A stretch of 63,825 nucleotides of DNA, filler included, from Folioceros fuciformis (Eukaryota): the NCBI GenBank assembly GCA_049999805.1. It is 6 parts of 6 records of this genome, joined end to end, with 100 filler letters (N's around TTAATTAATTAA, not from the genome) between each part and the next. Parts side by side here need not be neighbours in the genome. Positions count along the whole stretch, not along the records: positions 7,387 to 19,421 come from JBNGIO010005386.1; 5 more parts are not named here. One strand, 5' to 3'. The position numbers and the translations under genes are program-made. This document shows, piece after piece, positions 7,287 through 59,930 of this stretch. Each line of letters opens with the position of its first letter. Position 1 is the stretch's first letter. The notes below the pieces were generated by a model, which saw only the letters and a program-made list of their open reading frames with translations, ran no database searches and was not told the origin of the DNA.

Positions 7287-7386
7287 NNNNNNNNNNNNNN
7301 NNNNNNNNNNNNNNNNNNNNNNNNNNNNNNTTAATTAATTAANNNNNNNNNNNNNNNNNNNNNNNNNNNNNNNNNNNNNNNNNNNN
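7287..7386. other. Artificial contig linker 44N-TTAATTAATTAA-44N (also 19422-19521, 28613-28712, 49582-49681, 60031-60130)
   Basis: Identical 100-bp structure five times; the 12-mer has stops in all six frames. Confidence 0.97.
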
Positions 7387-10300
7387 GCGCCGCTCCTTAC
7401 GCGCGGGCGCCATGCAGGCCGCGAGCGCTGCTCCTTACACGCGAGCGCCGCTCCTTACGCGCGGGCGCCGTGATGTGGCCAGGCCCAGGGGCACCATCGG
7501 ACGTGGGCCCTGGAGCACCGAGGCGCGTGCACGGCCGCCTCGGTCGCCGAGGTGCGACGAGGCAAGGATAAGTGTCAGAGGCGCAAGCCTCACAGACGTC
7601 GGGCGAGGGAGAGTGGACGCCAAAGCGACACTGACACCGAGAGCAAAGGCGCGTGCCAGCTGAGATCCCAACCGTGAGGCGACCAGATTTCAATCGGAAA
7701 ATTTAGGCCCGTCGAGTCGGCTTGTGGACAGCCGATTCAAAACGATACATTTCATTTTGACCGATTTCTAACTAGCCTTTTGGTTGACTTGCATTGATTT
7801 TGAAACATGACGTCCTCAGCAAACGTCATGTTCAATATCGAGAAGTTAGATAGCACTAACTTCCCGTTCTGGAAAGAACAAGTCTATAATGTTCTAGTGC
7901 AAAAGAAGCAGATCAAGTTAATAAAATTACTAGGAGTGAAACCTGTTAGCATGACTCAGGATGAGTGGCAGGATCTAGATGAGCTTGCTAGGTCTACCAT
8001 CATGCTAACATTGTCGAAGTCGGTTTACTTCAACGTGAAAGACAAGATCACAAGTTTCGAGCTATGGCAGAAGTTATGTGACTTGTATGAGAAGCAAAGT
8101 GCGGCTTCTCAAGTGTATTGGTTGAAACAGCTGGTGGACTTGAAGATGAAGGAAGGGACGAGGATGTCTGATCATCAGAATGAGTTCAATATCATTTTCA
8201 GCCAGCTCTCATCTCAAGGTATCTCGTTCCCAGATTCGGTGAGAGCTATGTTTCTGTTGGTCACATTACCAGAGAGCTGAGACACCTTCTGTACAACTCT
8301 GAGTAATTTCACTCCTGCCAGTGGTCTTACCGTTGTAAATGTAGAAGGTAGCCTATTAACAGAGGAGGTGAACAAGAAGAATATGGAACCTTTCGAAATT
8401 GAGTGTTACCATTGTCACAAGAAGGGTCACATCAGGAAGGACTGCAAGAAGTTCAAGAAGGACAAAGGAAAGGAGAAGAAGCAGAGCGACAACAAGGCAA
8501 GTCTGAGTAACAAGCATGATGAGGTGAACTCTGTTGACAATGGAGATGTTCTTATCTCTTCTTCCTTCGATTCTGCACAATTGACAGCCTTCGAGAGTCA
8601 CTTATTCTCTAATTGGATAGTTGACTATGGAGCATCTTTCCATGTTACTCCGCATAGGGAGTGGTTTACCACTTATGACACTACTAGGAAAGGATGTGTT
8701 CGGTTGGAAATAACTACACATGCAAGATTGCAGGCGTTGGTGATGTGCAGCTGAAGTTCGACAATGATCTTCATTCGTACTGAAGGATGTTAGGCATGTT
8801 CCGAAGTTGACCAAAAGCATGATTAGCGCAGGGCAGTTGGATGACGCTGGCTACCACTGTTGGTTTGGAGATCGTTCTTGGAATATCTCCAAAGGTTCTC
8901 TTGTGTTAGCTCGTGGATCGAAGTGTGGCACTTTGTACTCACTTCAGGTAACCACTGTCAAGGATCATCTGATTTGTGTAACGAAACAGCCAAGTGTTTC
9001 CTTGTGGCATAGTCGATTAGGACATATGTCTCAAAAAGGAATGAAGATCTTATCTCGTTTTGGTTAAGTCCCTGCTTTTGACTTCTTTGATTGCTCCGTG
9101 TGTGAGCACTGTTTGTATGGGAAACAGACGAAGTCACCACATCGAGCAAGAGACACAAAAGTAAACCTCTTGAGTTGGTTCACATTGACCTTTGTGGACC
9201 TAGCCCACAGTATCGTTAGGTGGTGCATCCTATTTTGTCACTTTCGTAGATGATTTCTTACACAAGGTGTGGGTTTATCCTTTGAGGAAAAAGGATGATG
9301 TTTTGTCAGTGTTTCAGAAGTTCGTCACCCTTATGGAGAATCAGTCTGGCCTGCGACTGAAGTGTCTAAGGACAGACAATGGGGGAGAATATGTTTCGAA
9401 GGCTTTCCAGTCATTCTGTGATTCCAAGGGAATCAAGAGAGAATTGACTGCGCCGTATACTCCTCCCCAGAATGGTGTGGCAAACGGATGAACAGGACCA
9501 TCCAGGAGAGGATGCGTAGTTTGTTGTCAAACTCTAGATTGCCTAACGGATTTTGGGCAGAAGCAGTGGTTACGGCATTGCATCTTATTAACAGATCTCT
9601 TAATAGGGCTGTGGATGAGCGGGTTCCAGAGGAGATGTGGTCTGGAAAGAAGCTGTCATACAAGCATCTACGAGTGTTTGGCTGCGAGGCATACTATCAT
9701 GTTCCGAAGGAGTTTCGGGACAACTTGACTCCTAAGTCAAGAAAATGTATTTTTCTTGGCTATGGTGAATTTGGTGAGATGGGATACCGTCTATGGGATC
9801 TAGAGGCCAAGAGGATGGTTCGTAGCAATGACGTGTTCTTCAATGAGACCAAGATGTACAAGAAGCCTACTCCAACTGTGGAGGTGCGACATGTGGTCTT
9901 CCAAGAAGATGGACTTGACCGTCCCGCGCAAGTTGAACGTCGTGATGTGTAGGAACAAGTTCCTCCACTTGTAGAAGAGGAGAGAGTGCAACCAGCTCTG
10001 GTCGAGGCGCCAATGCTTCGTAGGTCAGGAAGGATCTCACGTCCTCCTGACAGGTATGTTGCATCTCTTGATTATGTCATGCTGACGAATTGTGGGGAGC
10101 CCTCTTGTTATCAAGAGGCTATGCCAGTGACTGACAAGAACAAATGGGAGAAGGCGATGCAGTCGCAGATGGATTCCCTCGATAAGAACCAAACTTGGGA
10201 GTTGGTTCGGTTGCCTAGGGGCCATAAGGCGTTGCCATGCAAATGAGTGTATAAGATGAAGGACATACCCCATTATGGCAAACCCAAGTACAAGGCGCGA

Positions 10301-12036
10301 TTGGTTGCTAAGGGTTTTAAGCAGCAGCAAGGTATTGACTTTGATGAGATTTTCTCACCAGTTGTCAAAATGACCACCTTGCGATGTGTTCTTGGTTTGG
10401 TTGCAAGGCACGACATGGAACTTGTCCAGATGGATGTGAAGTCAACATTTTTGCAAAGTGATCTCCAGGAAGAGGTATGCATGGGTTACCAGAGGGTTTC
10501 ATTGAGAAGGGCAAAGAGAGTCTGGTGTGCAGGTTAAAGAAGAGCCTTTATGGTTTGAAGCAAGCACCCAAGGAGTGGTATTTCAAATTCCACTCATTTA
10601 TGCTTTCTCAAGGCTACAAACGTAGCGATGAGGATCATTGCCTCTATACGAAGCAAGCTAAGGCTAGAAGCTTGCTCATTCTGGTCCTCTATGTGGATGA
10701 TATGCTAATGCATGGGACTAACAGTGATGAGATTTCAGCGTTGAAGTCAAAGTTGAATGCTCGCTTTGACATGATAGACTTGGGAGAGGCAAACCATATT
10801 CTTGGCATGCGTATTGGTCGAGATAGACAGAAGCATTTGCTTTGCTTGTCTCGGACTGAATACATTAACAAGGTGCTTCAACGTTTCAATATGGAGAAGG
10901 GGAAGGTATTGAGTACTCCGTTGCCTCCCTATGTGAAACTGACGAGCAAGGATTGCCCAAGTTCTGCGGAGGACAAAGCTGAAATGGAGAAGGTTCCATA
11001 TTCATTAGCTGTAGGGAGTTTGATGTATGCAATGATTGCTACACGTTCTGACATTGCCTTTGCAGTAGGAGTGCTTAGTAGGTTTATGTCAAACCCTGGC
11101 AGGAAGCATTGGGAGGAACTGAAAGGAGTTATGAGGTACTTGAATGGTATGAAAGCTTTGTGCTTATGTTTTGGTAGTGAAGATGCATCTGTCGTGGGAT
11201 ATACGGATGCGAATTATGCAGGGGATATGGACAAAAGGAGGTCCACATCAGGTTATGTCTTCATGTGCACTAGAGGGGCAGTCTCATGGCGATCTCGTTT
11301 GCAATCGTGCATAATGCTATCTACCACAAAGGCTGAGTATGTTGCAGCGACTGAGGCGTGCAAGGAAGCCATGTGGCTTGCTCGTTTAGTGGGAGATTTG
11401 GGGATCAAGGTTGAGCTACCAGTGTTGCATTGTGATAGCCAAAGTGCTCTCCAGTTGGTGAAGAATCCAGTGTTTCATGCGAAGACCAAACATGTGGAAG
11501 TGAAGTATCACTTCATTCGAGAGGTGTTGGAAGACAAGAGGGTACAGCTAGACAAAGTTCACACCAATCAGAACCCTGCAGATGTTCTTACCAAGGGGCT
11601 CTCTACGGAGCAATTCGCACAAGCTTGGACACTCATGGGCATGAGGTAGAGCACTCTTCTATGAAGGTAAATTGGCCTTTAAGTGGGAGGTTGTAGGGTT
11701 ATTAAAGCCCAATGTGCTTAGACTAATGTGTTTAGTCTAAGATTAGTGTCTAGTTAAGTATCATTTGTTTAGATTAGCTTAAGCCAATATGTAGGAAGCT
11801 TCTTACGTAGCTTCCTGTGCGCTTCTTGTGAAGCTTCCTTAAGAGCTCTTCTAGAGGGTATACATATCCCCTTGAGCCCCCTTTGCAATTGAGAGACACA
11901 GAGAGTGTGAGACCTCTCTTTCTTCTCTCCTCCTTGCTTCCTCCTCTCCTCCTTCACCATGTGGCTCCTCTAGCGATCTTTCAGCGAGACAACTAGAGAA
12001 TCTGCCGAGTGGAACATATGTTTCTTCACCACAACA
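7387..12036 (+). mobile_element. Ty1/copia element, Tnt1/Tork-like; degenerate gag-pol 7807-11649, 5' LTR outside contig
   Basis: IEKLDSTNFPFWK; CYHCHKKGHIRKDC; WIVDYGASFH; RTDNGGEY; LYVDDML; RNase H DKRRSTSGY; PPT 11681-11691. Confidence 0.93.
11692..12036 (+). repeat. 3' LTR of the Tork-like copia (~345 bp, TGTAG...CAACA)
   Basis: Begins immediately after PPT AAGTGGGAGGT; 3' end inferred from CAACA. Confidence 0.75.
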
Positions 12037-13588
12037 CCATGCCTTATAGCTCGCGGAAGAAGGAATCCTTAATTTGTGTTATTCGAATCCCTAATAATGG
12101 AGCGTTTGTGTCTTGAGCTTCAGAGTGAACTACACTTCCAATAGTTAAAAACTCGATGATCTCTACTGCGCCTGCATTAGGAGGTATGTTAGTCTTCTCC
12201 CACACTAAGGTGTGAATGGTTCCCCTCTTGCACCATGGCCGAAGTGCTTCCCTAGCCTGTGTAATCAGATCCATGCTATGCATGAGAACCAACCTATACA
12301 CAATACTGCTGGTGCATTCTGAAAACCCTCGAATCATGTACTTAAGCTGTTCGCTTGTCAGCTGCCTGTCGTATTCATGTCGTTGCTATTCGCGAGGCAA
12401 ACCTGCGAATAAGAGAGTATACGGTCGTTTTACCAGAAATGTTTTTATCTCTAGAACGTTTTGATGGATAACTTGATACTTAGTCATATTGTTACCGTTT
12501 GGGACTCTGCACTCTGATAATCCTGCATCCATATCTGCATTTGCGAGTCTCTACTATTCTTCTTCCATGCGCTTTGAGTTTCTAGCAGAGTAAACATAAT
12601 CTTGAAAAGGCTTTGGCAATGCTTCAAGGTTTGTGATGTCCACTAGTTTCTGCCAAAAAACATTTCGTTAAGAAAAACCACACAAAAAGCAGAATCACAA
12701 ATCATGAACTACGTCACTTCAGCCTAAGTAAGTAAAAAATCACTTCTAATGACTAGAGTGCACCGGTAGACTAGCGCACACCCTCCCCAATCTACATAGA
12801 AGTCCTTCAAGTTGGTCGGAGTGCGCCAGTAAACCGGTGCACTCCGGCCATTTTCACGAAAAAGCGTCGAAAAACTGCCCATTCCGGACATGGTAGCTGG
12901 GCTGTGCCGGTCTACCGGCGCACCCCCTCCGTAATGTATAACACATTTTGGAAAAATGGCCCGAGTGCGGCGGTCTGCCGGGGCACTCCGGTCATTTTTC
13001 TGCAATGCGTTATTTAACAGTGCATTTTGAAGATTTGGCCAGAGTGCGCCGGTCTATCGACGCACTCCAGCCATTTTTCCGGAAAGCGCTGGAAGACGTC
13101 GCATTCCAAAGAAATCAGCTGGAGTGCGCCGGTCTTCCGGCGCACTCCACAAGACTAGGAGAAGTGCGCCGGTAGACCAACGCAATCCAACCAACATGCT
13201 CAAAAGCATCTAAAGGCTCTGAAAAAGCAAGAGTACCACTTTTGTGAAGGCAGTTGGGAACTTGAGCAGATGTGAGTCTTCCGTATGCTTGGATACAAGA
13301 CTTCCGCTTCCTCAAATGCTGCACACTTTAAAGCCATCTTGAAAGCAAGTTGTATCAAATGTATCTTTTTCTTCTTCCCTACCTCTGTGTCCATGTCTTT
13401 CAGGTGCAGCTTGCCCTGGATGACCTTTTGCGTCACAGCTACTAGCATTTCCTTGCCTTTAACCCCTGTTGGGACTCCTTGAAAAGCCCTCTAAGGCCTT
13501 TCCTGCATTGCTACAACCTTCTTTAATAACTCATCTGACATTTGCGCACTACTGGAAGAGAGTCCAGCTTCCCTTGGTTGTCAGGCCA
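12037..13588 (-). pseudogene. Decayed two-exon gene fragment (exons ~13588-13237 and 12649-12037): helical region plus putative beta-class N6/N4 DNA methyltransferase-like domain
   Basis: Manual translation YQVIHQNVLEI...YTLLFAGLP...RLVLMHS...TLVWEKTN...EIIEFL; strong acceptor (poly-T, CAG at 12650-12652); both ends cut by LTR insertions. Confidence 0.5.
12755..13188. repeat. Seven ~28-bp imperfect palindromes, consensus GGAGTGCGCCGGT(AGA/CTA)CCGGCGCACTCC
   Basis: Copies start at ~12755, 12817, 12899, 12962, 13041, 13121, 13161. Confidence 0.9.
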
Positions 13589-15892
13589 TGCTGATTAATT
13601 AGGGTATCTAATTAATCAAATATATGTAATTTGTCTGATCACATGTAATTAGTCTAATCATATAATTAGGTAGATCAGGGATAGCTAGGTAGGGAACGTG
13701 TGACGCATTTAGGGCTCAGAAGCATCATTGTGCGAAATGGTGGGGAGGTTACGAGCGTGGGCAGCATGGCACCGACGGAGAAGAGGACAACTACGGGCAA
13801 CGGCCAAGGGCAAGCGCGACATATAAGTGTCGGACTTTAAGGCTTAGTCACACAGTTGTTAGAAGTCCTCTCGTTGAGCCTAAGCCTGCGGTCGAGGTGG
13901 CTGGCCAAGGAACTGCTTGTGAATCCACTGCTCAAAAATCAAAGTGAAAGCGTTGATGAGTCGCATCACGGTATGAGTATGTGTGATTGACAATATGAGT
14001 GTGCCACACCAGGGCTAGGTGGAGGACTTACTACAACTCGCAAACACGGTTGCTGGGATTGCAGGATTGGGGTCTGGCTCACAAACCTCAGGATTTGGCC
14101 AGGCAAGTTCACAAGGGCCGTGGTGCTCCGTCACGGGCATCAGAACGGCATCAGTGAACGACAGCATTGGACGTTGAGCTGAGATTCTTAGCTCAAGCAC
14201 CAAGAGAGCTCACGCACGCTGTTGTGCCTTGTCACGGGCATCAAGGCAACACCAGCGCACGGCGGCGCTGAGCGTTGGGCTGGTAGACAACAACGAGCTG
14301 GCGCGTGTGTGAGCGCCAGGAGTCGGGTGGGAAAAACCCCATCGAGTGCGGCTTGAGGCCGTCCATGAATTCGAGCTGATTGTGTGGAAGACCCACTCAC
14401 GGAGCTACGAATGTGACTGCGCGGTATGTGATCTACAGGGGCATACAAGCGGATCTGAGCTTGTTTAGTCGTGAACTAGAGCCGGCACAAGCAAATTGTG
14501 TGTGGGTGTCGACGTCCGTGCGTACNNNNNNNNNNNNNNNNNNNNNNNNNNNNNNNNNNNNNNNNNNNNNNNNNNNNNNNNNNNNNNNNNNNNNNNNNNN
14601 NNNNNNNNNNNNNNNNNNNNNNNNNTTTTTAGGACTGAGGGGCTGGGGAGGTAGCGCTGTGCCTGGATCGTGGCGCTGGCCTGGCCTAGGCAGGCTGTGA
14701 GTAGAGTGGTCTTGAGTCGCGGACGAAGCTGTGGGGGCAGTGGCGAGCACCGTCAACGCTATTTGTGGAGATCACCATCAGGATCAGAATCAACGCCTTC
14801 AGGGCCTCCGTGGTGACACTGACATGTGCAGTATTTTGTGTTGCGCACGCTGGGTGTGAATGGATGGTTGAGAGTCAGCCAGTTGATGCAGACAATTGCT
14901 TTGGCTGGACATCACTTGAGGATGTTGTGAGGCTGAGACTGTGTGGTGACGCTTTTGTGTGATGCCACTTCTAACAATTGTCCTGAACTTTGTGGCCATC
15001 GATTTGGTGTGCTGTAGGTTTTTGTCCATAAACGTATGTGGTTCCGGCTATGTGCATAGAGAGACACTCGCCCTTCTTTGTTAGGATTAGGGTGTGGACT
15101 CACCGTGCTAAAGTTTTGGTGAGCTAAGAGAAGGACAGGATACTCACCTTGTTGGGTGTCTGGTGGAGAGTGGTACACCGGCTGCTAAGCTGTAAGTGCT
15201 GGTTTGGCCTAGACCCTGAGTGAGCAGAGCTTCAGACTAGTAGACACTTAGCTGTCGATAGCGTAGTCCTATTGATGGTCTAGCAGGGAGTCAGGATCAG
15301 TCAGTAGGCACAAGTTGTTGTGCATCTCACGTTCTCACTTTTCTTAACTCACTGCTAATTACCGATCTTGTTTGGTTTCTGCATGGACTATATATGCCAT
15401 CTGATGGGAGTGATGAGGAGCCAGCCTACCATCTGAGAAGTAGGACCGTTCCATGGCGACTTTGGGTGCCTTGGTTGAGGGCATGGCGTCAATGGACTAC
15501 TAGGCCTAGTTCACCGGAGCAGAGATCAGCTGAGGAGCCGATTGACCACCACCCTAGCCAGAGTGTCACAGACCAGGGTAGCATTGGGGAAGCGTTTGGA
15601 CATGCTAGGGCAGTAGGAGTAAGTTGGTCGCCTCTGTCGACCATTGTTCAGGCTGTAAGTGGAGACACCAGCTCGGAGGAGAAGGAGTCTGAGGAGTCTG
15701 ACACCATGGAGGGATCGGGAGCACTTGTTCACAAGTCTGAAAAGTTTTCTGGCAGGCCAGGGACGCAGACCCTTAGGGATTTCAAGTTTTTTTATGGTTT
15801 CTTAACCAGCCGCGTTAAGTTTAAGCATGGAACTACTTATACCCATAGGTACATGTTTGAACAACTACTTGGGTACCTAGCTGATGAATCTT
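13589..15892 (+). mobile_element. Probable Ty3/gypsy 5' portion (long LTR/leader plus gag N-terminus ~15706-15892), interrupted by copia insertion
   Basis: TG start at the break of the upstream ORF; gag-like KFSGRPGTQTLRDFK...YTHRYMFEQLLGYL cut exactly at the copia LTR. Confidence 0.55.
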
Positions 15893-37852: not shown

Positions 37853-40800
37853 TTACCGTCGGCGTTCTTGCTGAATAGACAAGAGAATCCCAGCAGCTGA
37901 TTCAGGTGTCGCTACCACTGCTCGAGGGGCTACTTTAACCACACCTCCTTGGAGCTCACCAGAAACCAGACATGGCCGATCTTGATATTTGTCCACGACC
38001 GGGACAACAGGAAACAAAGGAAGTGGATTTCTCATACTAGCACTGCTCTGCAAGGCCTCAACATCTGCATCCTCATCCCTGGCACGCAAGTCCGTTTCTT
38101 TGGAGACGCATAGATCTCTCGGCCTCTTTTGAGACCGCTCATGATTCTGTTGTCCAGATATGCCATGCAAACCAGAAGCTGCATCTGTAGAGGCCTCTGC
38201 CTCAAAACTATCCATTTCTGATTGACATCTGTTCCAGCCTCCCTCTCTGTGTACCCTACTCGGTTCAGGCTTATCTCCTGCACTCAAGTTCTGTTGCAAG
38301 GATCTGTGGGCAGTACTTGGTCCCTGCGAGTTTACCCTGTCCACATCTGTCGTCGAGTTCCCCTTGGGCGTAGAGCCCATGGATGGTATTTGATACGTCC
38401 CACACAGCTCGAAATTGGGCCGTGGAACCAACGGTCTCCCCATTGCAGACGATGGAAACATATCTGCATACTCCAACGACTTGGTTACAGAGCATTTTGC
38501 ATGGTGACTTTGCACAGGCCCTTGAGACATACTGTACCATAAAGACATTGGATCACCTGCAGGTGCAGGTGCTGATGAGCCATAACATTGAGGATGTCTC
38601 GAGGCCCAAGAATAATACCTTGAGCAAGACTCCGAAAACAACTCAGACCATTTCTCATAGCCAGACAGGCCAAATGACATCATGGACAGATGACCTGGTA
38701 CACTGACCAGTGGGCGATATGGCCCATATGCACCAACAAGAGGACCTGCAGAGGGGGCAAAGGAAGGAGGATAATGGCACATATATGTTCCTGTCCTGGC
38801 AGACATGGCTCCCAGCCATGGATTTACGGGATATGGGGGGTAACCCCAAGCATTCGGTACCTGGGGATACAAAGCGGATACCTGTGAGACAGATGCTTGA
38901 CCAATCCGACCCTGGGTTTCTGTGCTCGTAGATGTAGGACCTTCCTTACAGGAAGATCCCTTTGCAGTCACAGCCTCTGTTTGCATAACACTGCTTGGGG
39001 CTGCCTTTCTACTTCCACGCGATTTATGATGCATTCCGGCATCATGAATTTTTGTTTTCTCACAAGCTTTCTCTATCAAGTTTGCAGCCACAAAATCACT
39101 ACATCCTTCAGATACAGTGTAGTCCACACTTGGAGACATGGCCATAAGCTGCTGAACCTGTTCACAATCAGCACGTCCACTACTGAGCCATTTGCAGGGC
39201 TGAAAGACTCTCGGGCAATAACAAGGAATAGCAAAGATATAGATTGCCAGGGTGAGAACCTTAACCAACCGGTGAAGCTCAAAAACCTGGACAGAAAAGA
39301 TTCTTTGCTGCCTGTGAACAGAGAGAGAAGCAGGGTATCACATACAATAAGCACAAGATTCAACAGAATCTACAAACGAGATCATCTAGGCTCTGACTCA
39401 ATGTGTCTTGCCTCCATGTCTTAGCTCAAGCTGGCAATCGAAGAGTGAAGCTAATCATAGCTCCACAGATTGCCAGGGCTAGAGAATCTAATACTTGTGG
39501 TACAAACGAACAAGATAAAACGCGAGATTCAAACCATGAAAACAAAATTTACCTTAAGATAGCTTTCCGGGTTCTCCAGAACTCTTGTTGACCAATGGCT
39601 CCAATGACATGTCTCGGAGAGATCCTGTGAATGGTTATCGAGTCGACCATGGAGGAGTCTGAATCATCGCCTGTGCAACCAGCAACATATGAAGGTTCGG
39701 GAGCTTGTAGCCCATTACCAGCTCCCTGGTGTTCAGAATCTCCACTGCTTTCAATACTGTCAGTTTTGTATCCTTGTGGATGATGGTGCTTTTCAAGATT
39801 AGGAGAAACCTTGCGGATGGACGAGATATTGTTGAAATGATTGTCCTCTGTATCAGTGACACCATCCTTCGGCAAAACAAGGCCGCTAGACATACCACAA
39901 TCATGATCTTGACCCCTGTCTCTAAACCCATGGGGAACTATGGGGCCATGCATTGCACATTCGTCATGCATAGCACATCCTACTGCAGTCTGTGCAGAAG
40001 CTTTAACGGACTTGTTCCTCGGGTCTTGAAATGAGCCTGGTTCCAGAAAATTGCCAGCAGATACAAGAGGTTCATCAGGCCAACTGTCTCGCCGAGGGGA
40101 CAGCACGTTCCCAAACAAATCAGGCACCACCGTTTTGCACAAGCCTGAGTTACAGGCAGTAGAACCTTTCAATTCAGATATTGCCTTACTTCGCCTTGCT
40201 GCTCGAGTACCAGTCTTCCCACTGCAGCTTCCAGTAGCGTCTAATAGATCCTGACACACCAGTCCAGTTGCATCCTCAACTTGTCCGTCTCCAGCACTTT
40301 GCCCAGTCATGCCACTTGCAGCATTCAAGGACCCTTCGTGCATACTCTTCACACCAGTATCCGGAAAAAGAGATGACCCTACTTTGTTCTTGTGGGGCAC
40401 GGAATATATTGGCACAGTGAAATCGTCTTCATTTCTATGCTTCTTAGCGCATGCCAACTTCGGCTGATCAATAGAGTGAGCACCTGATACAACATTCAAA
40501 GGCCCAGGTCCCGGGCTAGGTGCAGAACTATCCACCTGCGAAACACCAGGAACTCTTTGTAACTCTCCATCACCGTCAACAATGGTACTAGTACTGCTCC
40601 CAAGAGATGCGTGGCCTCCCAACTGTCGTCCCATGCTGGTACCGGTATATGCCAAAGGGGGCGGGACACAGTTCTGAGGATACATGTACCTCCTGTCATA
40701 GACCGAGTACTGCACATGTGGAGTCCACGGTTACAAAGACAACAACAGTGATCAATAACAACTGCATGTCGTGACTGCTCATTTGGCTAGCGCACAAAGA

Positions 40801-41215
40801 TAAAGGTCCTCAAACTCGTCACATTAGTATGGCAGAAATATCAGACCCTACAATCCAACAACATTTTCAGGTCGAGACCTTGCTCGTTAACACGCTGGGA
40901 AAGTTGTGCTGCCTACAACCGCTCAAGCTACAATAATAACACAACAAATGATCTATGAAAAATGGGCAGGTTAATGACCTGAGGAACAAGCGGCACGGAG
41001 CCCGCCTTCCGTGCGGAACTGGGAAGAGGGAGGGACGACGACATGAACCTGTGTGAAGGTATCGTGAACTGCTCATACAAAGCCATCTTATTCCGTGGAG
41101 GGGCACGAGGCCCCACCTTGTTGGTCTCCTTCACGTGCAAACGAGGAAATAAAACTCCAGCCTCAAGCCCCCCGCCCTTCAAGCCATCCCCCGACCCGTC
41201 ATCCGCCCCTTTCAT
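37853..41215 (-). CDS. ELF3: EARLY FLOWERING 3-like clock protein; exons 41215-40979, 40709-39553, 39311-39260, 39157-37853 (~916 aa; in-frame upstream ATG at 41296)
   Basis: Block [28 protein letters not shown]; block [50 protein letters not shown]-terminal [26 protein letters not shown] junctions in phase, 52-nt exon 3. Confidence 0.96.
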
Positions 41216-41496
41216 CCCACCAGCGGAAAGGGATTTGCTCAACACTTCATCATACATGTTGCTGTGGTCCTTTCTCTGCCAACCACCTTCCCACATCCAC
41301 AGGGCCCAACGGGAGTGCTCAACGACACTTCCATGGACCTACAAGCTCAAACACCCCCAGGCAACGCCGACGGGTTGCACATTTGCAAAAATTTCGTGTC
41401 TCGGAATGTTTGTAAATCTCCCGCGGTCGACCTACAAGCTCAGACACTCGACGCTCAAACACCGTACCGTGCAGTGCCACCGCGTCCCCCAATTGC

Positions 41497-50683: not shown

Positions 50684-52146
50684 CTCTAGGTCAGTCAACT
50701 CTGCCTAGTTTGGCAACCATCAGGAATGTCTCTTATTTATAGCCCTTTCATTTGTACAAATAATTGGAGCAAATGGTATTTTGTGCTCATAAACCCATGT
50801 AAAATGAAACCCCTATGCTTTCCATGTCCTTCATCTACTAGGATTGCCCAAGATAAAAGTTTTGAGCAAGTCTTCAAATTCTAAAAACATAGATAATTTT
50901 ATGAAGTGCATATGGTTCAACCAGTCTTAGCGAAGATCTAATGTTCGGAATTGCCTCAAACTTGTCGAAACCTGCACATCTTGTTTATAGTGTTCTCAAA
51001 GAACAAAGACATTGAAGATGATCTAAAAACCTGCATCTCGGCCATACCAGACTTGGCAGCTACTCTTCATAACCTTTCTGGTTTATCTTCAAACTTGCAA
51101 TACCGGCCTTTCTGGGTCATCTTCAAACCTGCAAGGTCATGTAAAGTGGAGCATGAAGTGCTCTAGAGAGCAATTGCAACTCGAAGACAACCTAAGGATT
51201 CTGTAAAGTTTGGCTACATGCATCCTTGTTACATGTATATAGCAAGATCTAAGACATTAAGTCTCTACTCCATGCTTCTCCTAAGTGGCTTTATGTGATG
51301 AGCATTCTCTCTGGACTGCTGACTTTACTAATGCTAGGTGAAGTTGAGAGAAGAGCCCTTATCCGCTTTGTTGTCTTATGTTGTTTTTATTGCACTTTAA
51401 CAAATCCACACGAGTGAAGACATTGAGGAAAACCACATGGGAGTCTGCCCAAGAGGCGCCATAGTATTGATCTTCAAGATGGAGGATTGTCAAAGCAATG
51501 CAAGTGGTCCTTCAACATTTGTGAGCTCCAGCCCACAATTGATCTCCTCCGCATTTGTTATGAAACACTTGGATGCTACATCCCAGCTCCATATCATGGA
51601 ATACTGGATGGTGCATCCAAATTCCAATTTATGATGAAGTGTCATATGGGGGATCGAAGCTCTTGAAATGGGAAGCGCTAGTCGGAAAGAAATCATGGGT
51701 CTTGGGATGGCTCCAGTCTATTTAAGGGCATTAGCCAAGTAGGCAGGAACACACTAGTGACCAGAGAAATACATTGAGTGGACACAAACGCAATGGAGGA
51801 AAGTAATTATTTGAGAAAAACAAGATAGGAAACCATCTACCCCGCTAGACGTGACCAGGCCGCCGGGGGCTAACCCCTGACGCCGCTGGAGTTGTAGTTC
51901 TGCATCATTCATGTGCTGGGAGGGTGCTCTGCTCTCCATCTGTTTGTCAAGGTCGATCCACCTTTGAGAGAGAAAGATGTTAGACAGTTAACCAGCTTGT
52001 GGAACGTTAACAATATGCTAACCATTTCCATCGCCTGAAGATCCCGGGGGGTGGAACAAGTGTATAGTACACGGATTCAAGGAGTGCTTGGGCAGTCGCC
52101 GGTCTCCTGATGTTACCCTCCCCTGATCGATACTGTCGTGTGAACG

Positions 52147-53546
52147 ATGTCAGAGAGGGACTCTATAACTGCCCAATTGCAGGATGCTCTGATGCAGGCT
52201 TTGAGCGGGAGTGCTCTGCACGTCCCTTGCTCTGATGAAGCTCCAGGAACGTCATCGGGGCCACAAGCGGTATTGCCCTACGGTGAGTCATCGGTAGGCA
52301 GCGAGAAAGTAGGAAGCGGCACTCCGCTTGTCGATTCCGCAATATCTGAGCAGCAAAGCCAAGTTTTGAGTTTGGCAGACTTGGAATTCATGTTGTTGGA
52401 TGAAAGTGACCAGGATGAGTCGCATCTTTCGGACATGATTGCCTGCCACGAACTGCATACTGAGCTAGCATGTATTACTGACGAGGAGGTAGGTCATTCT
52501 GACATACCCGAGACCTGGCAGGAGGTGCTCAAAGACAATGAACGGGATGCAAGGGTGATAGAGCTGAAAGACCTGCTGCAGGAGTGTGCAAAGGCAGTCC
52601 TTGAGGATGATTTTCACACATCCACCATGCTGGTGAGCAACAGCAGGAGATACTCCACTCCTTACGGTTCTGATCTACAACGTCTGACCCACTATCTTGT
52701 GGTGGCATTGGTTGCTTCTCGACGCATCTGAAGGAGCAAAACGAGTGCGCATCATTAGCTATGGCATTCAGAATGGACGGCAATGGCCCAACTTCACGAG
52801 GGTTCTTGCTTGCCGTGTAGGAGGTGCTCCACGGCTGAGAATGACTGGCATTGAACTGCCTGGGCTTGGTCTTGACCAGGATGAAATGCTCATGGCAACT
52901 GGGACCAGGCTGAAAAGTTTTGCAACAAGTTTCCGGATTCCGTTTGAGTATAAAGGCATCTCAAACAACTGGGAAGATGTGCAGGTTTTTGAAATAGGTC
53001 TACGGGATGATGAAGTGCTTGCTGTGTGCTCTGTATACCGGCTCCGACATCTGCTGGACGACAATGTGATGCCGACCAACCCAAGCAAGATTGCTTCACT
53101 GGATTTGCAGTATGAACCCTACAGTGTTTGTCACAGTGGTGGTGTCCACGGCAGTAAATATGCACTCTTTGCTGGCTAGGATTCCTAACCTTGTGGATTA
53201 CATGAGTCATCTATTTGATTTGCATGAATACACACTGGCTGACTATCCAGAAGAGAGAATATATTTGGAACAGGAAATTCCTGGCCGTGCTATCCTGAAC
53301 ATTCTTGCTTGTGAGGGGTTGGATAGGTGGGAACGAGCTATGACCCATGGTGAGTGGGAACATCTGCTTGTGAATGCTGGGTTCCAGCAGGTCGCATTGC
53401 AGAAGAATTGGTTCAAAGGTGTAGTGGAAATGCTGGAAGGCTATCACAAAGAGTTCAGTGTTCGACAGGAGCGTGGATGGTTTTTCCAGTGCTGGAAGCA
53501 AAAAGCTCTTCATGCAATGGCAGCATGGAGATGTGCACGGTGGTAG
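52147..53546 (+). pseudogene. GRAS transcription factor (LISCL/SCL14-like), with deletion and frameshifts
   Basis: LKDLLQECAKAV..TPYGSDLQRLTHY; VRIISYGIQNGRQWP (VHIID); PRLRMTGIELP; ILNILACEGLDRWER; AMAAW (SAW). Confidence 0.9.
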
Positions 53547-54069
53547 GAACACGCGGACAGGGAATTGTTGGACAACCCTGATGATATGGACCAGGTGGCG
53601 GCCTCTCGTTCATACTCCTGTGATGCAGATCCGCACAGGCAGGTCAGTCTCCGTCTGCTAGGCCCTGAGAGGACTAAAACGAATGTCCCAAGCAAGCTTA
53701 GTACAGACAGAGACGCTGGATACTCCAGCATAAAATTTTCCACACGCTGCTCAACAGCTTGGACGTTCAGGTGAGGAGACGATGACGCTGCTGAATTGTG
53801 CTAGGGGAGTGGTTGCAGGTGGTATTCCCAATGGCACATGGGAAGAGTCTGTGGAGGATCAAGATGCCGAGTTTGCGGCTTTCTCACGTAATTGCCCACC
53901 AGGCACAGCGTAGTGAGCTTGCATGTCTAATTCAAAAGGTAGCCGTTCGCTTGAATGTTTCTGGATGTGGTTCGAGGACACCCCTAATCAGCCGAGTGCT
54001 GGTGCCAGAGTATGCTACAGAACATGTCGTCCTTAACCTGCAGTTGGATGCTTCAACGTTGCCTGCTGG

Positions 54070-55049
54070 TACTCCTCGGAAGCAGCTCTGTGTGAGTGAT
54101 ATTACAGACATGCTGGTGGAATGTGCATTGGCTGTTCTTGCAACTGATGTTTCCAATGCCACCATGCTTGTGAACAAAATCAGGTTACTTGCCACTCCCA
54201 ATGGCTCTGCCTTTCAAAGGATGACACACTACTGTTTGGAGGGATTCGAGGCCAAGCTCCATGGCATAGGTGCCGATTTGTACTCTGGAGGGATTTGCGG
54301 CCAAGCTCCATGGCACAGGTGCCGATTTGTACACTGCATCTTTTAAAAATCGTCCTGATGGATACTACACCCAGAGAGCCCAGACAGTTGTTTCGGTTGT
54401 ACATAATGGCATGTCAGTTCACCAACGCAGCGCTGCTGGATGTATTTGAAGGAGCAGACCGGGTGCACGTCATCAGGTTTGGTATCCTGAATGGACGACA
54501 AGGGTTTAGCTTCATGGAGGCCCTTGCGAACTGGTCCGGAGGTCCTCTGCAGTTAAGACTAACTGGCATTGAGTACCCTCAGCCTGGTCTGGTGCAAGTC
54601 GGGCGCAAGCTCGAGGTGTTCGCAGAATGCCTAGGAATTCGCTTTGGTTTCCAAAGCATCTGAGGCAAGTGGGAAGATGTCCAAGTGCATACAATGGGGC
54701 TGAGGAAAGATGAATAGCTTGCCGTGTGCACCTTGTACCGTCTGCGCCGTCTGATGGATGACAGTGTGCTTCCTTCCAATCCAAGGAGGATTGTGCTGGA
54801 AAAATTTTGCAGCATGAACCCCGTAGTTTTCGTGACAGTGTTCATGAATGCGGCTTTAAACTCCCCTTTCTTGGTGAAGAGGATTCCTGCCCTTGTTGGA
54901 TGGATGAGTTGTGTGTATGAAATTTATGAATCCACATTGCCTGACCATCGAGAGGAGAGACAATACCTGCAGTCCGAGGTATCGGGCCGCAGCATTCTCA
55001 ATATCCTGGCGTGTGAGGGACTGGACAGGAGGGAAAGATGTACCAGTTA
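54070..55049 (+). pseudogene. Second tandem GRAS (LISCL-like) pseudogene, 3'-truncated
   Basis: MLVECALAV..TPNGSAFQRMTHY; VHVIRFGILNG; LRLTGIEYPQPG; ILNILACEGLDRRER; stops at 54661 and 54715; internal ~33-bp duplication at 54250/54300. Confidence 0.9.
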
Positions 55050-56345
55050 ACTCTGCAGCTTGGTATTCCTCAACAACCAATGTCCGTGAGCCTCTTGTAC
55101 CGGTAGATATGATTTCGTACTGGTTACATTTGTTGATACTCTTGAAGTGTGGCCTTCAATGCTGCAGTGACGATGCCCATAGCATGGTCTGGTACTGTCA
55201 GCGGCAGTGCAGTGACTGGGCCGACTCTTCCAACTCTTTCTGCAGTGAGTTAGGACTGCCACCCCCACAGCTTGTATGATTCCAATCCCCATATTTCTGG
55301 TGAAGGTCTTGAAGGAATGTAACCAGGTGCTGGCGGGCTTCAGTCTTCTTGAGTTTATATAAGAGGTTCGTTCGTTGTAGCAACCCTTCCATGTCTGGTT
55401 GGTGAGTGTCAGTCAACATGTTGCCCTTGCATTCCAAGATCTAGAAAGCGTCAAATTTCATGTGCTCGTTAACTTTGAATCTCCACAGACAGGTCTACTG
55501 TCTGCTTGTATCTCCTCCATTTTCCTTGACTCATATGCAATTCCTTGCTGTCCAGGGACAGTTGAGTAATTCGAGGTCTCGACTCTTGATCCGGACCTGA
55601 TTACAAACCAAACCTTGTCTGTCTTCAGACAATCTCCAATCTTCACCAGGAACGGCGGTGACCGAAGGCCCGGCGGGAACCACCGGCCAGATTCTTGATG
55701 GGTGAGCATCACGATATGGGCGTGATGCGTTGCAGGGTCGCACTGCAACGTGGACCCTTTTCTCGAGACAGACCAACCTAGAAGCCGTGAACTGGTTACC
55801 TCCTGTATCTGGCACAGGCAGATCCACAGATGTGCATGCTCACCCGTGGTGCTACATGCTCATCCGGGGTGCTACAGCAGCCTCACACAGAAATTTCAAA
55901 TGCGTGTTGTTGGTACTGAAGGGAGCTCGAGCAAGCCTCCCCCGGGGTATCTTCGAGCCAAATTCCTTTGAAGAGAAGAAAAGGCCAAAATGCCCTAGCA
56001 GAGGGAATTTTACCCACCCAGGTAAAACAAGCGCTACCAGAGAAGAAAACAAGAGAGGAGATTTCCTTATGAAAAAGGAGATAGAAACCAATGTACCCCT
56101 AAACGAAACCGAAAACGTACTAACAAATAAGCCCCTCAGCTGAAGGCCCTTAAGTTGTCTTTCAGGTTGATCAAAAAACCCAAAAGTCATCAAAGACAAG
56201 CCCAAGTGCTTAAATCTGACGAGCAAACTTCGAGTCATCAAGGCAAGCCACCCAAGTTCTTAAAGTTGACAAACGAACTTAGAGTCATGAAGACAAGCCT
56301 GGGTGCGGGTTGGAAACCCAGGTTCTTAAACAAAGTCCTGAGTTA

Positions 56346-58782: not shown

Positions 58783-59526
58783 TCATCCCTTCTTCACAGG
58801 CCGTTGCACATACGACTTGTTAGGATCCTCCGTCTTAAGCTTAGGCGGCCGTAGCTCCCTCGTCTTCACCTTCTTGCCTCCCTTCATGAAATCCCGCCAA
58901 CTCGTGACTCTGTTTTCCCTAGTCTCCTCCCACTTTTCTTGATCCTCCCGCTTCCTCTTCCACATCTCCCTCGTCTCCTCCTCCTCCTTCTTCAACCTCC
59001 CTTCCTCCTCCGATATCCGCATCTGCATCTTCCGCCGCCGCCACTCCTGCTCCGTCAGTATATCCCTCACCCGCTGTTTCAACCTCTGCTTCCACTCCTC
59101 CGACTCCTCGTACTGCGCCTCCGACTTGCCCTCGTCCACCATGGACCTGATCTTGGACGCCGTGTCCCGCTTCAGCTGCTTCTTCCTCTCCGCTCTCAGC
59201 TCGTCCCTGGCCAGGCAAATCTGCGCAACCACGTATTCCCGCTCCTGCGGATCCAGCAGCAGCTGTTGCGCCTTGGCCAGCGCTCCAAACGCCTCCTTCG
59301 CCTGCGGATGCTTGCATTTGTCCGGGTGGATCAGCAGCGACAGCTTCCGGTACTGCCTTCTCACTTCCTCCGGCGTCGCCTCATACTGCAGATTGAGATG
59401 CTCGAATGGATTGAGCTTGAAACACGAAAGCACCCGCACGACCTCGTTGTCCCGCTCAACCTCGCTCACCTCCGCAAAAAACTCCTTCAGCAGCAAATCC
59501 TCCGACACGGCCACCGGATCCACCAT
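58783..59526 (-). CDS. DNAJC8: J-domain protein, DNAJC8/spf31-like, 247 aa, single coding exon
   Basis: FFAEVSEVERDNEV..CFKLNPFEHL..YRKLSLLIHPDKC..WEETRENRVTSWRDF..RPPKLKTED; intact ATG to stop. Confidence 0.93.
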   Translation of the reverse strand: MVDPVAVSEDLLLKEFFAEVSEVERDNEVVRVLSCFKLNPFEHLNLQYEATPEEVRRQYRKLSLLIHPDKCKHPQAKEAFGALAKAQQLLLDPQEREYVVAQICLARDELRAERKKQLKRDTASKIRSMVDEGKSEAQYEESEEWKQRLKQRVRDILTEQEWRRRKMQMRISEEEGRLKKEEEETREMWKRKREDQEKWEETRENRVTSWRDFMKGGKKVKTRELRPPKLKTEDPNKSYVQRPVKKG

Positions 59527-59930
59527 GTCGCCTGCCTGCTTCCAGCCTCCCGTGCCCCGCTCCCTCGTCTCTCCCCTTCCTTCCTCCTTCGCATCTGCAG
59601 TTAGCAGCAGGCCAGGCTCTCACAATCCCAGCCCTAGAAAATACCGTCTTCCTGGTTCGCTCAACAAAAGCCTCAACCCCAGGTTTATCCCACTATCTCT
59701 CACCATTACCTCCCTGCAACACCTACATAGAAAAACAACACGCAAATACATACGCCAAGGAAATTTCTTCCCTTTTAAATTATCCTACCTCAATATAAGA
59801 AGAAGGTTCGTATGAAATATCGATATGGACAAGGTTTTTCACATAAATTTTAGGGTGGCGGTATATGGTGTAATTTTAGGGCAGGGGTATACGGTGCAAA
59901 ACGTTTGTGCCCGTTTCGGTCATAGGGCAT

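Follow-up and report, generated by a model that had tools for sequence, protein, structure and literature searches.

A dead remnant of a cut-and-paste transposon with a beta-class amino-methyltransferase gene in Folioceros fuciformis

Several described systems come close to the locus presented here. Prokaryotic DNA methyltransferases of the beta class (M.RsrI, CcrM, M.MboIIA, M.BceJIV and the phage family phrog_67) share with it the placing of motif IV before motifs X-I, the Pfam family PF01555 and matches in both sequence and fold. They differ in that the gene described here has introns, a fused ParB-like/helical part, a DLPR motif (DxPY in its relatives) and a place on a eukaryotic transposon with terminal inverted repeats (TIRs). 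Further DNA-modifying enzymes borne by transposons are those of DNMT retrotransposons and KDZ-TET/JBP.

Eukaryotic beta-class enzymes of bacterial type are represented by bdelloid N4CMT and Marchantia DN4MT1 (PMC8885841, PMC10406627, bioRxiv 2021.02.12.428880). According to the available parts of these accounts, both are host genes with SPPY/TSPPY motifs, whereas ours is borne by a transposon and combines a D-type motif with a ParB-like arm. N4CMT carries a chromodomain and silences transposons, whereas the present enzyme is carried by one. The accessible text on the bdelloid enzyme states that it is without eukaryotic homologs (PMC8885841), an excerpt of a further paper cites bacterial-type beta-class amino-methyltransferases in a couple of eukaryotes only, as host genes (PMC12344493), and few N6A enzymes are said to exist in land plants (excerpt of PMC4738411).

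Dam-like domains of DIRS elements and the ParB-HTH Dam proteins of chlorophytes and chytrids also join a mobile element, or a ParB fusion, with a DNA-modifying enzyme. In the portion of the source available, however, the DIRS and chlorophyte Dam are group-2 enzymes (M.TaqI/EcoKI-type) and not of the permuted beta class, DIRS elements are retroelements, and the chlorophyte Dam is not described as transposon cargo (PMC4738411). VANC of VANDAL elements and TnpA of Spm are, as excerpted, accessory proteins whose family-specific target motifs recur in non-coding stretches of the transposon; they cause loss of 5mC (TnpA via host demethylases), whereas the present element has its own methyltransferase fold and long palindromes (PMC5735166; bioRxiv 10.64898/2026.08.24.746577). 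Finally, Sola transposons have 4-bp target site duplications (TSDs), TIRs and a length of 2-9 kb, and occur in moss but rarely in flowering plants; our element is like them in these TSDs, TIRs and size range, a likeness by description, while the part of the description available mentions a transposase only (PMC10741241).

A full-text literature search, with Repbase and subscription journals outside its scope, turned up no TIR transposon described as carrying an amino-methyltransferase gene; an earlier mention is possible. The locus described below is dead, yet it marks a real, apparently undescribed kind of plant DNA transposon.

The remnant and its setting

The window, that is, the whole stretch of 63,825 nucleotides analysed (filler included), consists of separate contigs in a row, and several of the N-run joins carry a TTAATTAATTAA linker. 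The contig of the locus covers positions 7387-14525 only; genes beyond the N gaps at 7287-7386 and 14526-14625 were rejected as linked neighbours. Elsewhere the window holds a multi-exon gene at 37853-41338 (minus strand) that presumably resembles plant ELF3, judging by motif (two of its ORFs have no Pfam match), frameshifted and apparently tandem GRAS-domain genes at 52144-55279 (plus strand) and a DnaJ gene without introns at 58783-59619 (minus strand).

At 13578-11984 on the minus strand lies a dead 1.6-kb remnant of a cut-and-paste transposon of about 9 kb (Table 1). Alignment with the paralogs C2463, C5931 and C6337 places homology to other copies of the element between about 13578 and 11984. 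An ATG at 13588 was considered as start codon and rejected, since it sits in unrelated DNA outside this homology. The unrelated sequence upstream is probably another LTR element. On the other side the gene is truncated by a copia element, with an RVT_2 match in its ORF at 10462-11649. A preliminary description of the locus had placed this insertion at 12036; homology extends to 11984 and the LTR ends at 11983, so that the boundary was 52 nt off. A related situation is found in another contig of the genome (C2705, locus L003), where a member of the same copia LTR family (107-414, 79% identical) lies just past another truncated methyltransferase exon. That exon breaks at a different point from the one in the window.

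Table 1. Features of the remnant and the sequences bordering it
Feature	Position	Strand	Basis
3' part of ParB-like/helical cargo exon, 5'-truncated	13237..13578	-	Paralog alignment
GT-AG intron, phase 0, housing the palindrome array	12650..13236	-	Splice sites kept in C2463, C5931, C6337
Seven copies of the 22-bp palindrome GTGCGCCGGTNNACCGGCGCAC, putative sites, parS-like or for the transposase	12758..13185	.	Motif count
Beta-class amino-methyltransferase exon, N-terminal two thirds	11984..12649	-	Paralog alignment
Position of catalytic motif IV, GLPR in the window, DLPR in the family	12392..12403	-	Paralogs, hhalign
copia 3' LTR cutting the gene, TG...CA, preceded by polypurine tract	11692..11983	+	Terminal CA at 11982-11983
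Unrelated sequence beginning TG, found in place of the element's 5' part and reaching the contig end	13579..14525	+	Without homology to element copies

The gene structure proposed in the preliminary description largely stands. Translation confirms the minus frame from 12649 with its three TAG stops (12556, 12553 and 12388, that is, codons 32, 33 and 88). Donor (GT, 13236-13235) and acceptor (AG, 12651-12650) both line up with the splice sites of the paralogs, and the exons join in phase as predicted. The upstream helical exon does exist, and the single frameshift it was thought to need is a 1-nt deletion near 13293. Two corrections must be made. There are two stops more than the three counted, a premature TAG at 13493 in the upstream exon and a TAA at 12071. 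Moreover, the methyltransferase exon is thrown out of frame by 14 nt inserted near 12092-12079, and the last 15 or so residues of the earlier reading were off-frame; past the insertion the true frame reads GFLLPRAIRHG and ends just short of the PYQK motif.

The window copy does not include the ParB-like N-terminal part present in fuller copies. Its helical block can be aligned with homologs from Chara, Adiantum, Riccia and metagenomes, and its methyltransferase exon is 61-82% identical to paralogs (longer intact matches) and matches a DIPY-type homolog, P0014, with a BLASTP E-value of 2e-11. A Pfam search with the window fragment alone returned no family, even at E up to 10, and the locus is identified as a methyltransferase because its paralogs match.

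The parent transposon and its relatives

A DNA search of the 87-Mb genome of F. fuciformis gave 84 matches and a protein search at least 149, which are 24-87% identical apart from the query itself (150 of 182 candidates scored). A further 57 genomic stretches were retrieved for inspection. One copy, C2463, measures about 9.0 kb between its inverted repeats; TIRs are about 30 bp long in the fuller copies, and the five copies with both ends are flanked by 4-bp TSDs (ATAG, ATAA, CTTG and ACTT are exact; ATGC/ATGT differs at one position). The element encodes a DDE transposase (DUF7869, E 4e-50) that is rich in cysteine at its N-terminal end and in which three acidic motifs are conserved; a search of PDB sequences with an intact transposase gave nothing below E 0.7. 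On the opposite strand is an intron-containing gene comprising N-terminal exons, a ParB-like domain with a GGNH motif, a helical domain and the methyltransferase.

When the 149 methyltransferase and 118 transposase matches were merged by hand into 120 and 85 loci, respectively, 23 of the 120 methyltransferase loci had a transposase match within 10.5 kb, and 22 of 24 pairs were head-to-head (many contigs are too short to contain both genes). The pairs include subfamilies just 31-43% identical, and one subfamily 39% identical has the same gene layout and the same intron position. The earlier suggestion that the gene may be cargo of a large transposon is thus borne out, since the paralogs lie inside elements with TIRs and TSDs and head-to-head with a neighbouring transposase. 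The remnant, no longer functional, derives from an autonomous, Sola-like TIR DNA transposon in which two genes lie head-to-head. Attribution to the Sola superfamily and to a subgroup is provisional and rests on TSD length, TIRs and size; we also assume that the DUF7869 transposase is a link to Sola.

Many copies are non-autonomous and retain the methyltransferase exon only. Four copies (C6283, C7223, C4715 and C6337) have internal deletions in which both ends and the methyltransferase exon are kept and the ParB-like part or the transposase is mostly lost. Between C2463 (L035) and C5982 (L023) the transposase has a dS of 0.51 while that of the methyltransferase is saturated, which hints at a swap of cargo modules between subfamilies. 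The search for intact paralogs in this genome found none: every copy examined has stops or frameshifts. At least 13 of the 21 stops scored are CAG>TAG, CGA>TGA or TGG>TAG changes, the types expected if host-methylated DNA had decayed.

Between subfamilies, the methyltransferase exon shows a dS from 0.7 to saturated compared with a dN of 0.10-0.27 (Nei-Gojobori counting), and the ParB exon a pS of 0.76-0.83 compared with a pN of 0.15-0.16. Within subfamilies, omega for the methyltransferase is 0.13-0.27 between separated lineages, compared with 0.42-1.0 in the closest pairs; with its two nearest relatives, the window copy gives 0.69 and 1.01. From this pattern, the cargo protein was preserved as long as the elements remained active, and decay of the window copy has been neutral from then on.

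Relatives are not confined to F. fuciformis. A profile search of 1.84 billion proteins yielded 65 matches at E<=1e-10 and, among the 30 looked up, there are proteins of Ginkgo, Chara braunii (3), Adiantum nelumboides (3), Riccia sorocarpa and Cymbomonas, several of which share the ParB-like and helical parts. One Chara protein (P0015, GBG86584.1) has two ParB-like plus methyltransferase units in a single prediction, perhaps adjacent elements merged by annotation. A scan of metagenomes gave 78 loci, which stem from few sample series and are not 78 independent cases; the ParB-like part is present in 48 of them, and 11 carry the same transposase (seven head-to-head, three tail-to-tail and one in tandem). 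The transposases of linked relatives elsewhere are 43-47% identical. One metagenome element, L085, is complete: it is 7.6 kb long, with perfect 33-bp TIRs, an open transposase frame of 897 codons, cargo exons free of stops (as read manually) and a DIPY motif. Both L085 and a second metagenome element, L114, have TIRs, and flanking duplications are absent from both; collapsed assembly of many copies could explain this. Scanning metagenomes with Chara-type patterns confirmed 0 of 140 candidates. On viral contigs there were four loci, matching the generic motif X-I region only, and this search gave no pointer to a viral origin or context.

The anatomy of the element, its methyltransferase fold, long purifying selection and, in other organisms, association with the same transposase are, in our view, established with very little doubt.

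Methyltransferase, ParB-like arm and palindromes

The C-terminal half of the methyltransferase, absent from the window, is supplied by the paralogs (SPYQKP...GDWVVDACAGSGS...GRH). Five of their exons were translated with X at stops and searched against Pfam. All five match N6_N4_Mtase (PF01555), four of them with scores (34.5, 41, 31 and 30.3 bits) above the gathering cut-off of 26.7; the profile check proposed in the preliminary description therefore succeeds for paralogs and not for the window fragment. The beta-type order suggested there, with the catalytic motif leading, is also seen: paralogs have DLPR at residues 83-86 (context LLFADLPRG) and DACAGSGS near 242. In a search of PDB sequences, M.RsrI and other beta-class enzymes were the best matches, weak and confined to motifs X-I. 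The AlphaFold model is poor (pLDDT 45), and the top 13 listed Foldseek entries are nevertheless all beta-class DNA methyltransferases, headed by M.BceJIV, CcrM, TTHA0409, MboIIA and RsrI (best E 2.8e-6, about 260 aligned columns); N4CMT matches the model weakly (E 7e-3). Profile and structural similarity to amino-methyltransferases is thus present in the paralogs, in agreement with the beta-class identity first proposed. Copies in this genome also have a conserved acidic extension after the methyltransferase (about residues 295-401 of P0002) with no Pfam match.

Motif IV was initially read as GLPR. It does depart from DPPY, but as a family motif GLPR must be rejected: paralogs read DLPR, and the G is decay of the window copy. 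Copies in this genome have DLPR, DMPR, DVPR or DLHR, and the canonical (D/N/S)PP(Y/F), with an aromatic fourth residue, was not found among them. D83 is invariant in 12 of 12 paralogs and DACAGSGS is retained in most copies, while in some divergent ones the glycines of motif I are eroded. In relatives, motif IV is mainly DLPY, DIPY, DVPY, DAPY or DFPY, with DLPR in 6 of 150, and hhalign superposes DLPR on DIPY with a probability of 100. A quick tree, built from the 75 of 162 rows kept by a motif filter (the automatic motif labels of P0060, P0066 and P0061 are wrong), groups our copies and three further DLPR proteins in one clade (SH-aLRT 97) nested among plant DxPY proteins. On these alignments, the non-canonical motif IV is ancestral to the clade and not a product of decay alone. 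The aromatic residue of motif IV stacks on the flipped base, and the DLPR clade, which does not have it, may therefore not methylate. Against this, m5U RNA methyltransferases use DPPR. The motif is DPPY in N6A enzymes and SPPY in most N4C enzymes, as far as the available text goes (PMC8885841), and the D that opens it here points weakly, by analogy, to adenine as predicted target.

Assignment of the N-terminal arm to ParB is suggestive only, being based on sequence matches that pass no threshold. One of the four relatives scanned for the ParB exon, L060, has an exon that matches the helical exon of the window and gives HTH_ParB at E 8.6e-4, below the cut-off. Atlas leads for the ParB-like region include ParB_N (0.93 and 0.90), with DUF3723 ranked higher. 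ParB proteins have an N-terminal motif of the GxxR type, and GGNH stands where it would be expected. The ParB-like pieces of this genome gave no Pfam or PHROG match. With a model of the ParB/helical exon (pLDDT 61.5), fold searches returned no match at E<=0.001, none with Z>=5 and no PDB match; KorB and SopB appear at Z 2.7-3.4 amid unrelated helical matches to this low-confidence model. By its features, the region is nearest to fungal DUF3723 proteins and to sponge and mollusc clusters, which may be accessory genes of other transposons.

The intron between the two exons contains all seven matches to the palindrome in the whole window (at <=3 mismatches; 0.00 expected, with a maximum of 0 in 100 shuffles). 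In five delimited elements there are 47 palindromes within 27.8 kb, compared with 0 in 55 kb of flank. Candidate palindromic sites in cis are thus present and restricted to elements. They are 16-22 bp long and specific to a family, related families having different ones (for example, TCGATGC-N3-GCATCGA at a spacing of about 51 bp, GCGAGAC-N2-GTCTCGC and CCCGAT-N6-ATCGGG). Most are internal, between the genes or in the intron of the cargo gene, and some are subterminal. At least three exact family-specific copies occur in 17 of 39 related contigs of at least 3 kb, compared with 0 of 117 resampled controls. The 17 include L132 (1110-3376), a weak and probably unrelated match with a short-palindrome array of its own. 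No exact array was found in the other 22, which include L085, or in the old subfamilies C6281, C6316, C6298 and C5918.

Possible roles of the cargo and their significance

The helical domain may bind the palindromes of its own element family, which group between the two promoters, inside the intron and close to the ends. At these sites the ParB-like domain would load, or it would spread outwards in the way that ParB spreads from parS, and the methyltransferase would then put 6mA (or 4mC) on the DNA of the element. Such a mark could maintain the activity of the divergent promoters or protect them against 5mC silencing by the host, much as in VANC/VANDAL but by enzymatic means. That a ParB/parS-like module aims the methyltransferase at its own element to counter silencing is, we infer, about evenly poised between right and wrong. 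A wider version is possible but rather doubtful: a group of green-plant transposons, possibly so ancient that it reaches from algae to gymnosperms, would have repurposed ParB/parS loading to lay down a private 6mA/4mC mark that co-evolves with the palindromes and counters 5mC silencing, with DLPR as a new active-site chemistry.

Other explanations must be weighed against this. In the DLPR clade, including this genome, the methyltransferase fold might be catalytically dead or weak and the protein a factor that binds, flips bases in or shields the palindromes. This is unlikely, though to be taken seriously. The Tyr-to-Arg change marks a single well-supported clade, the eroded motif I glycines point the same way, and the methyltransferase domains of DIRS elements are called likely inactive in the available part of Iyer et al. 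(PMC4738411). The invariant D83, DACAGSGS in most copies and purifying selection on the whole domain argue for a working enzyme, as does DLPR itself, which is kept across subfamilies 36-39% identical, so that the Arg looks selected. A further explanation, which we consider distinctly improbable, separates the two components: the palindromes would be transposase-binding sites (for end pairing or activation), and an active enzyme, not aimed by them, would modify excised DNA or new insertions, host DNA or RNA. Transposases can themselves attach to clusters of motifs and switch on the elements that encode them, and the available text gives Spm and AtMu1 transposase/TnpA proteins as examples of such binding (bioRxiv 10.64898/2026.08.24.746577). 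This would suit the subterminal palindromes but not the majority, which are internal. Similarly, eukaryotic amino-methyltransferases have often shifted to RNA, according to the excerpt consulted (PMC4738411), but fusion to HTH-like and ParB-like parts points here to a protein bound to double-stranded DNA.

That the gene is a host gene captured passively (Pack-type cargo) and useless to the element is largely refuted, and we give it scarcely any credence. It would account for the many copies reduced to the methyltransferase exon. It is at odds with a layout that is constant across subfamilies and in organisms with transposases 43-47% identical, and with a dN/dS of 0.04-0.27 wherever pairs from distinct lineages could be measured.

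The family places beta-class amino-methyltransferases on transposons at least in F. fuciformis and in the hosts of the metagenome contigs, and annotated relatives are known from Chara and Ginkgo as well as from a green alga, a liverwort and a fern. Both a source of enzymatic 6mA/4mC in plant DNA and the self-defence of a transposon by a mark that it writes itself can now be tested, with the apparently intact element L085 and the predicted target palindromes of the family as reagents ready to hand. Epigenome engineering, too, could gain a tool in a methyltransferase that is targeted by sequence and spreads. If the proposed targeting is true, such elements may give rise to amino-methylation signals in seed-free plants, and plant amino-methyltransferases that became domesticated may also stem from them.
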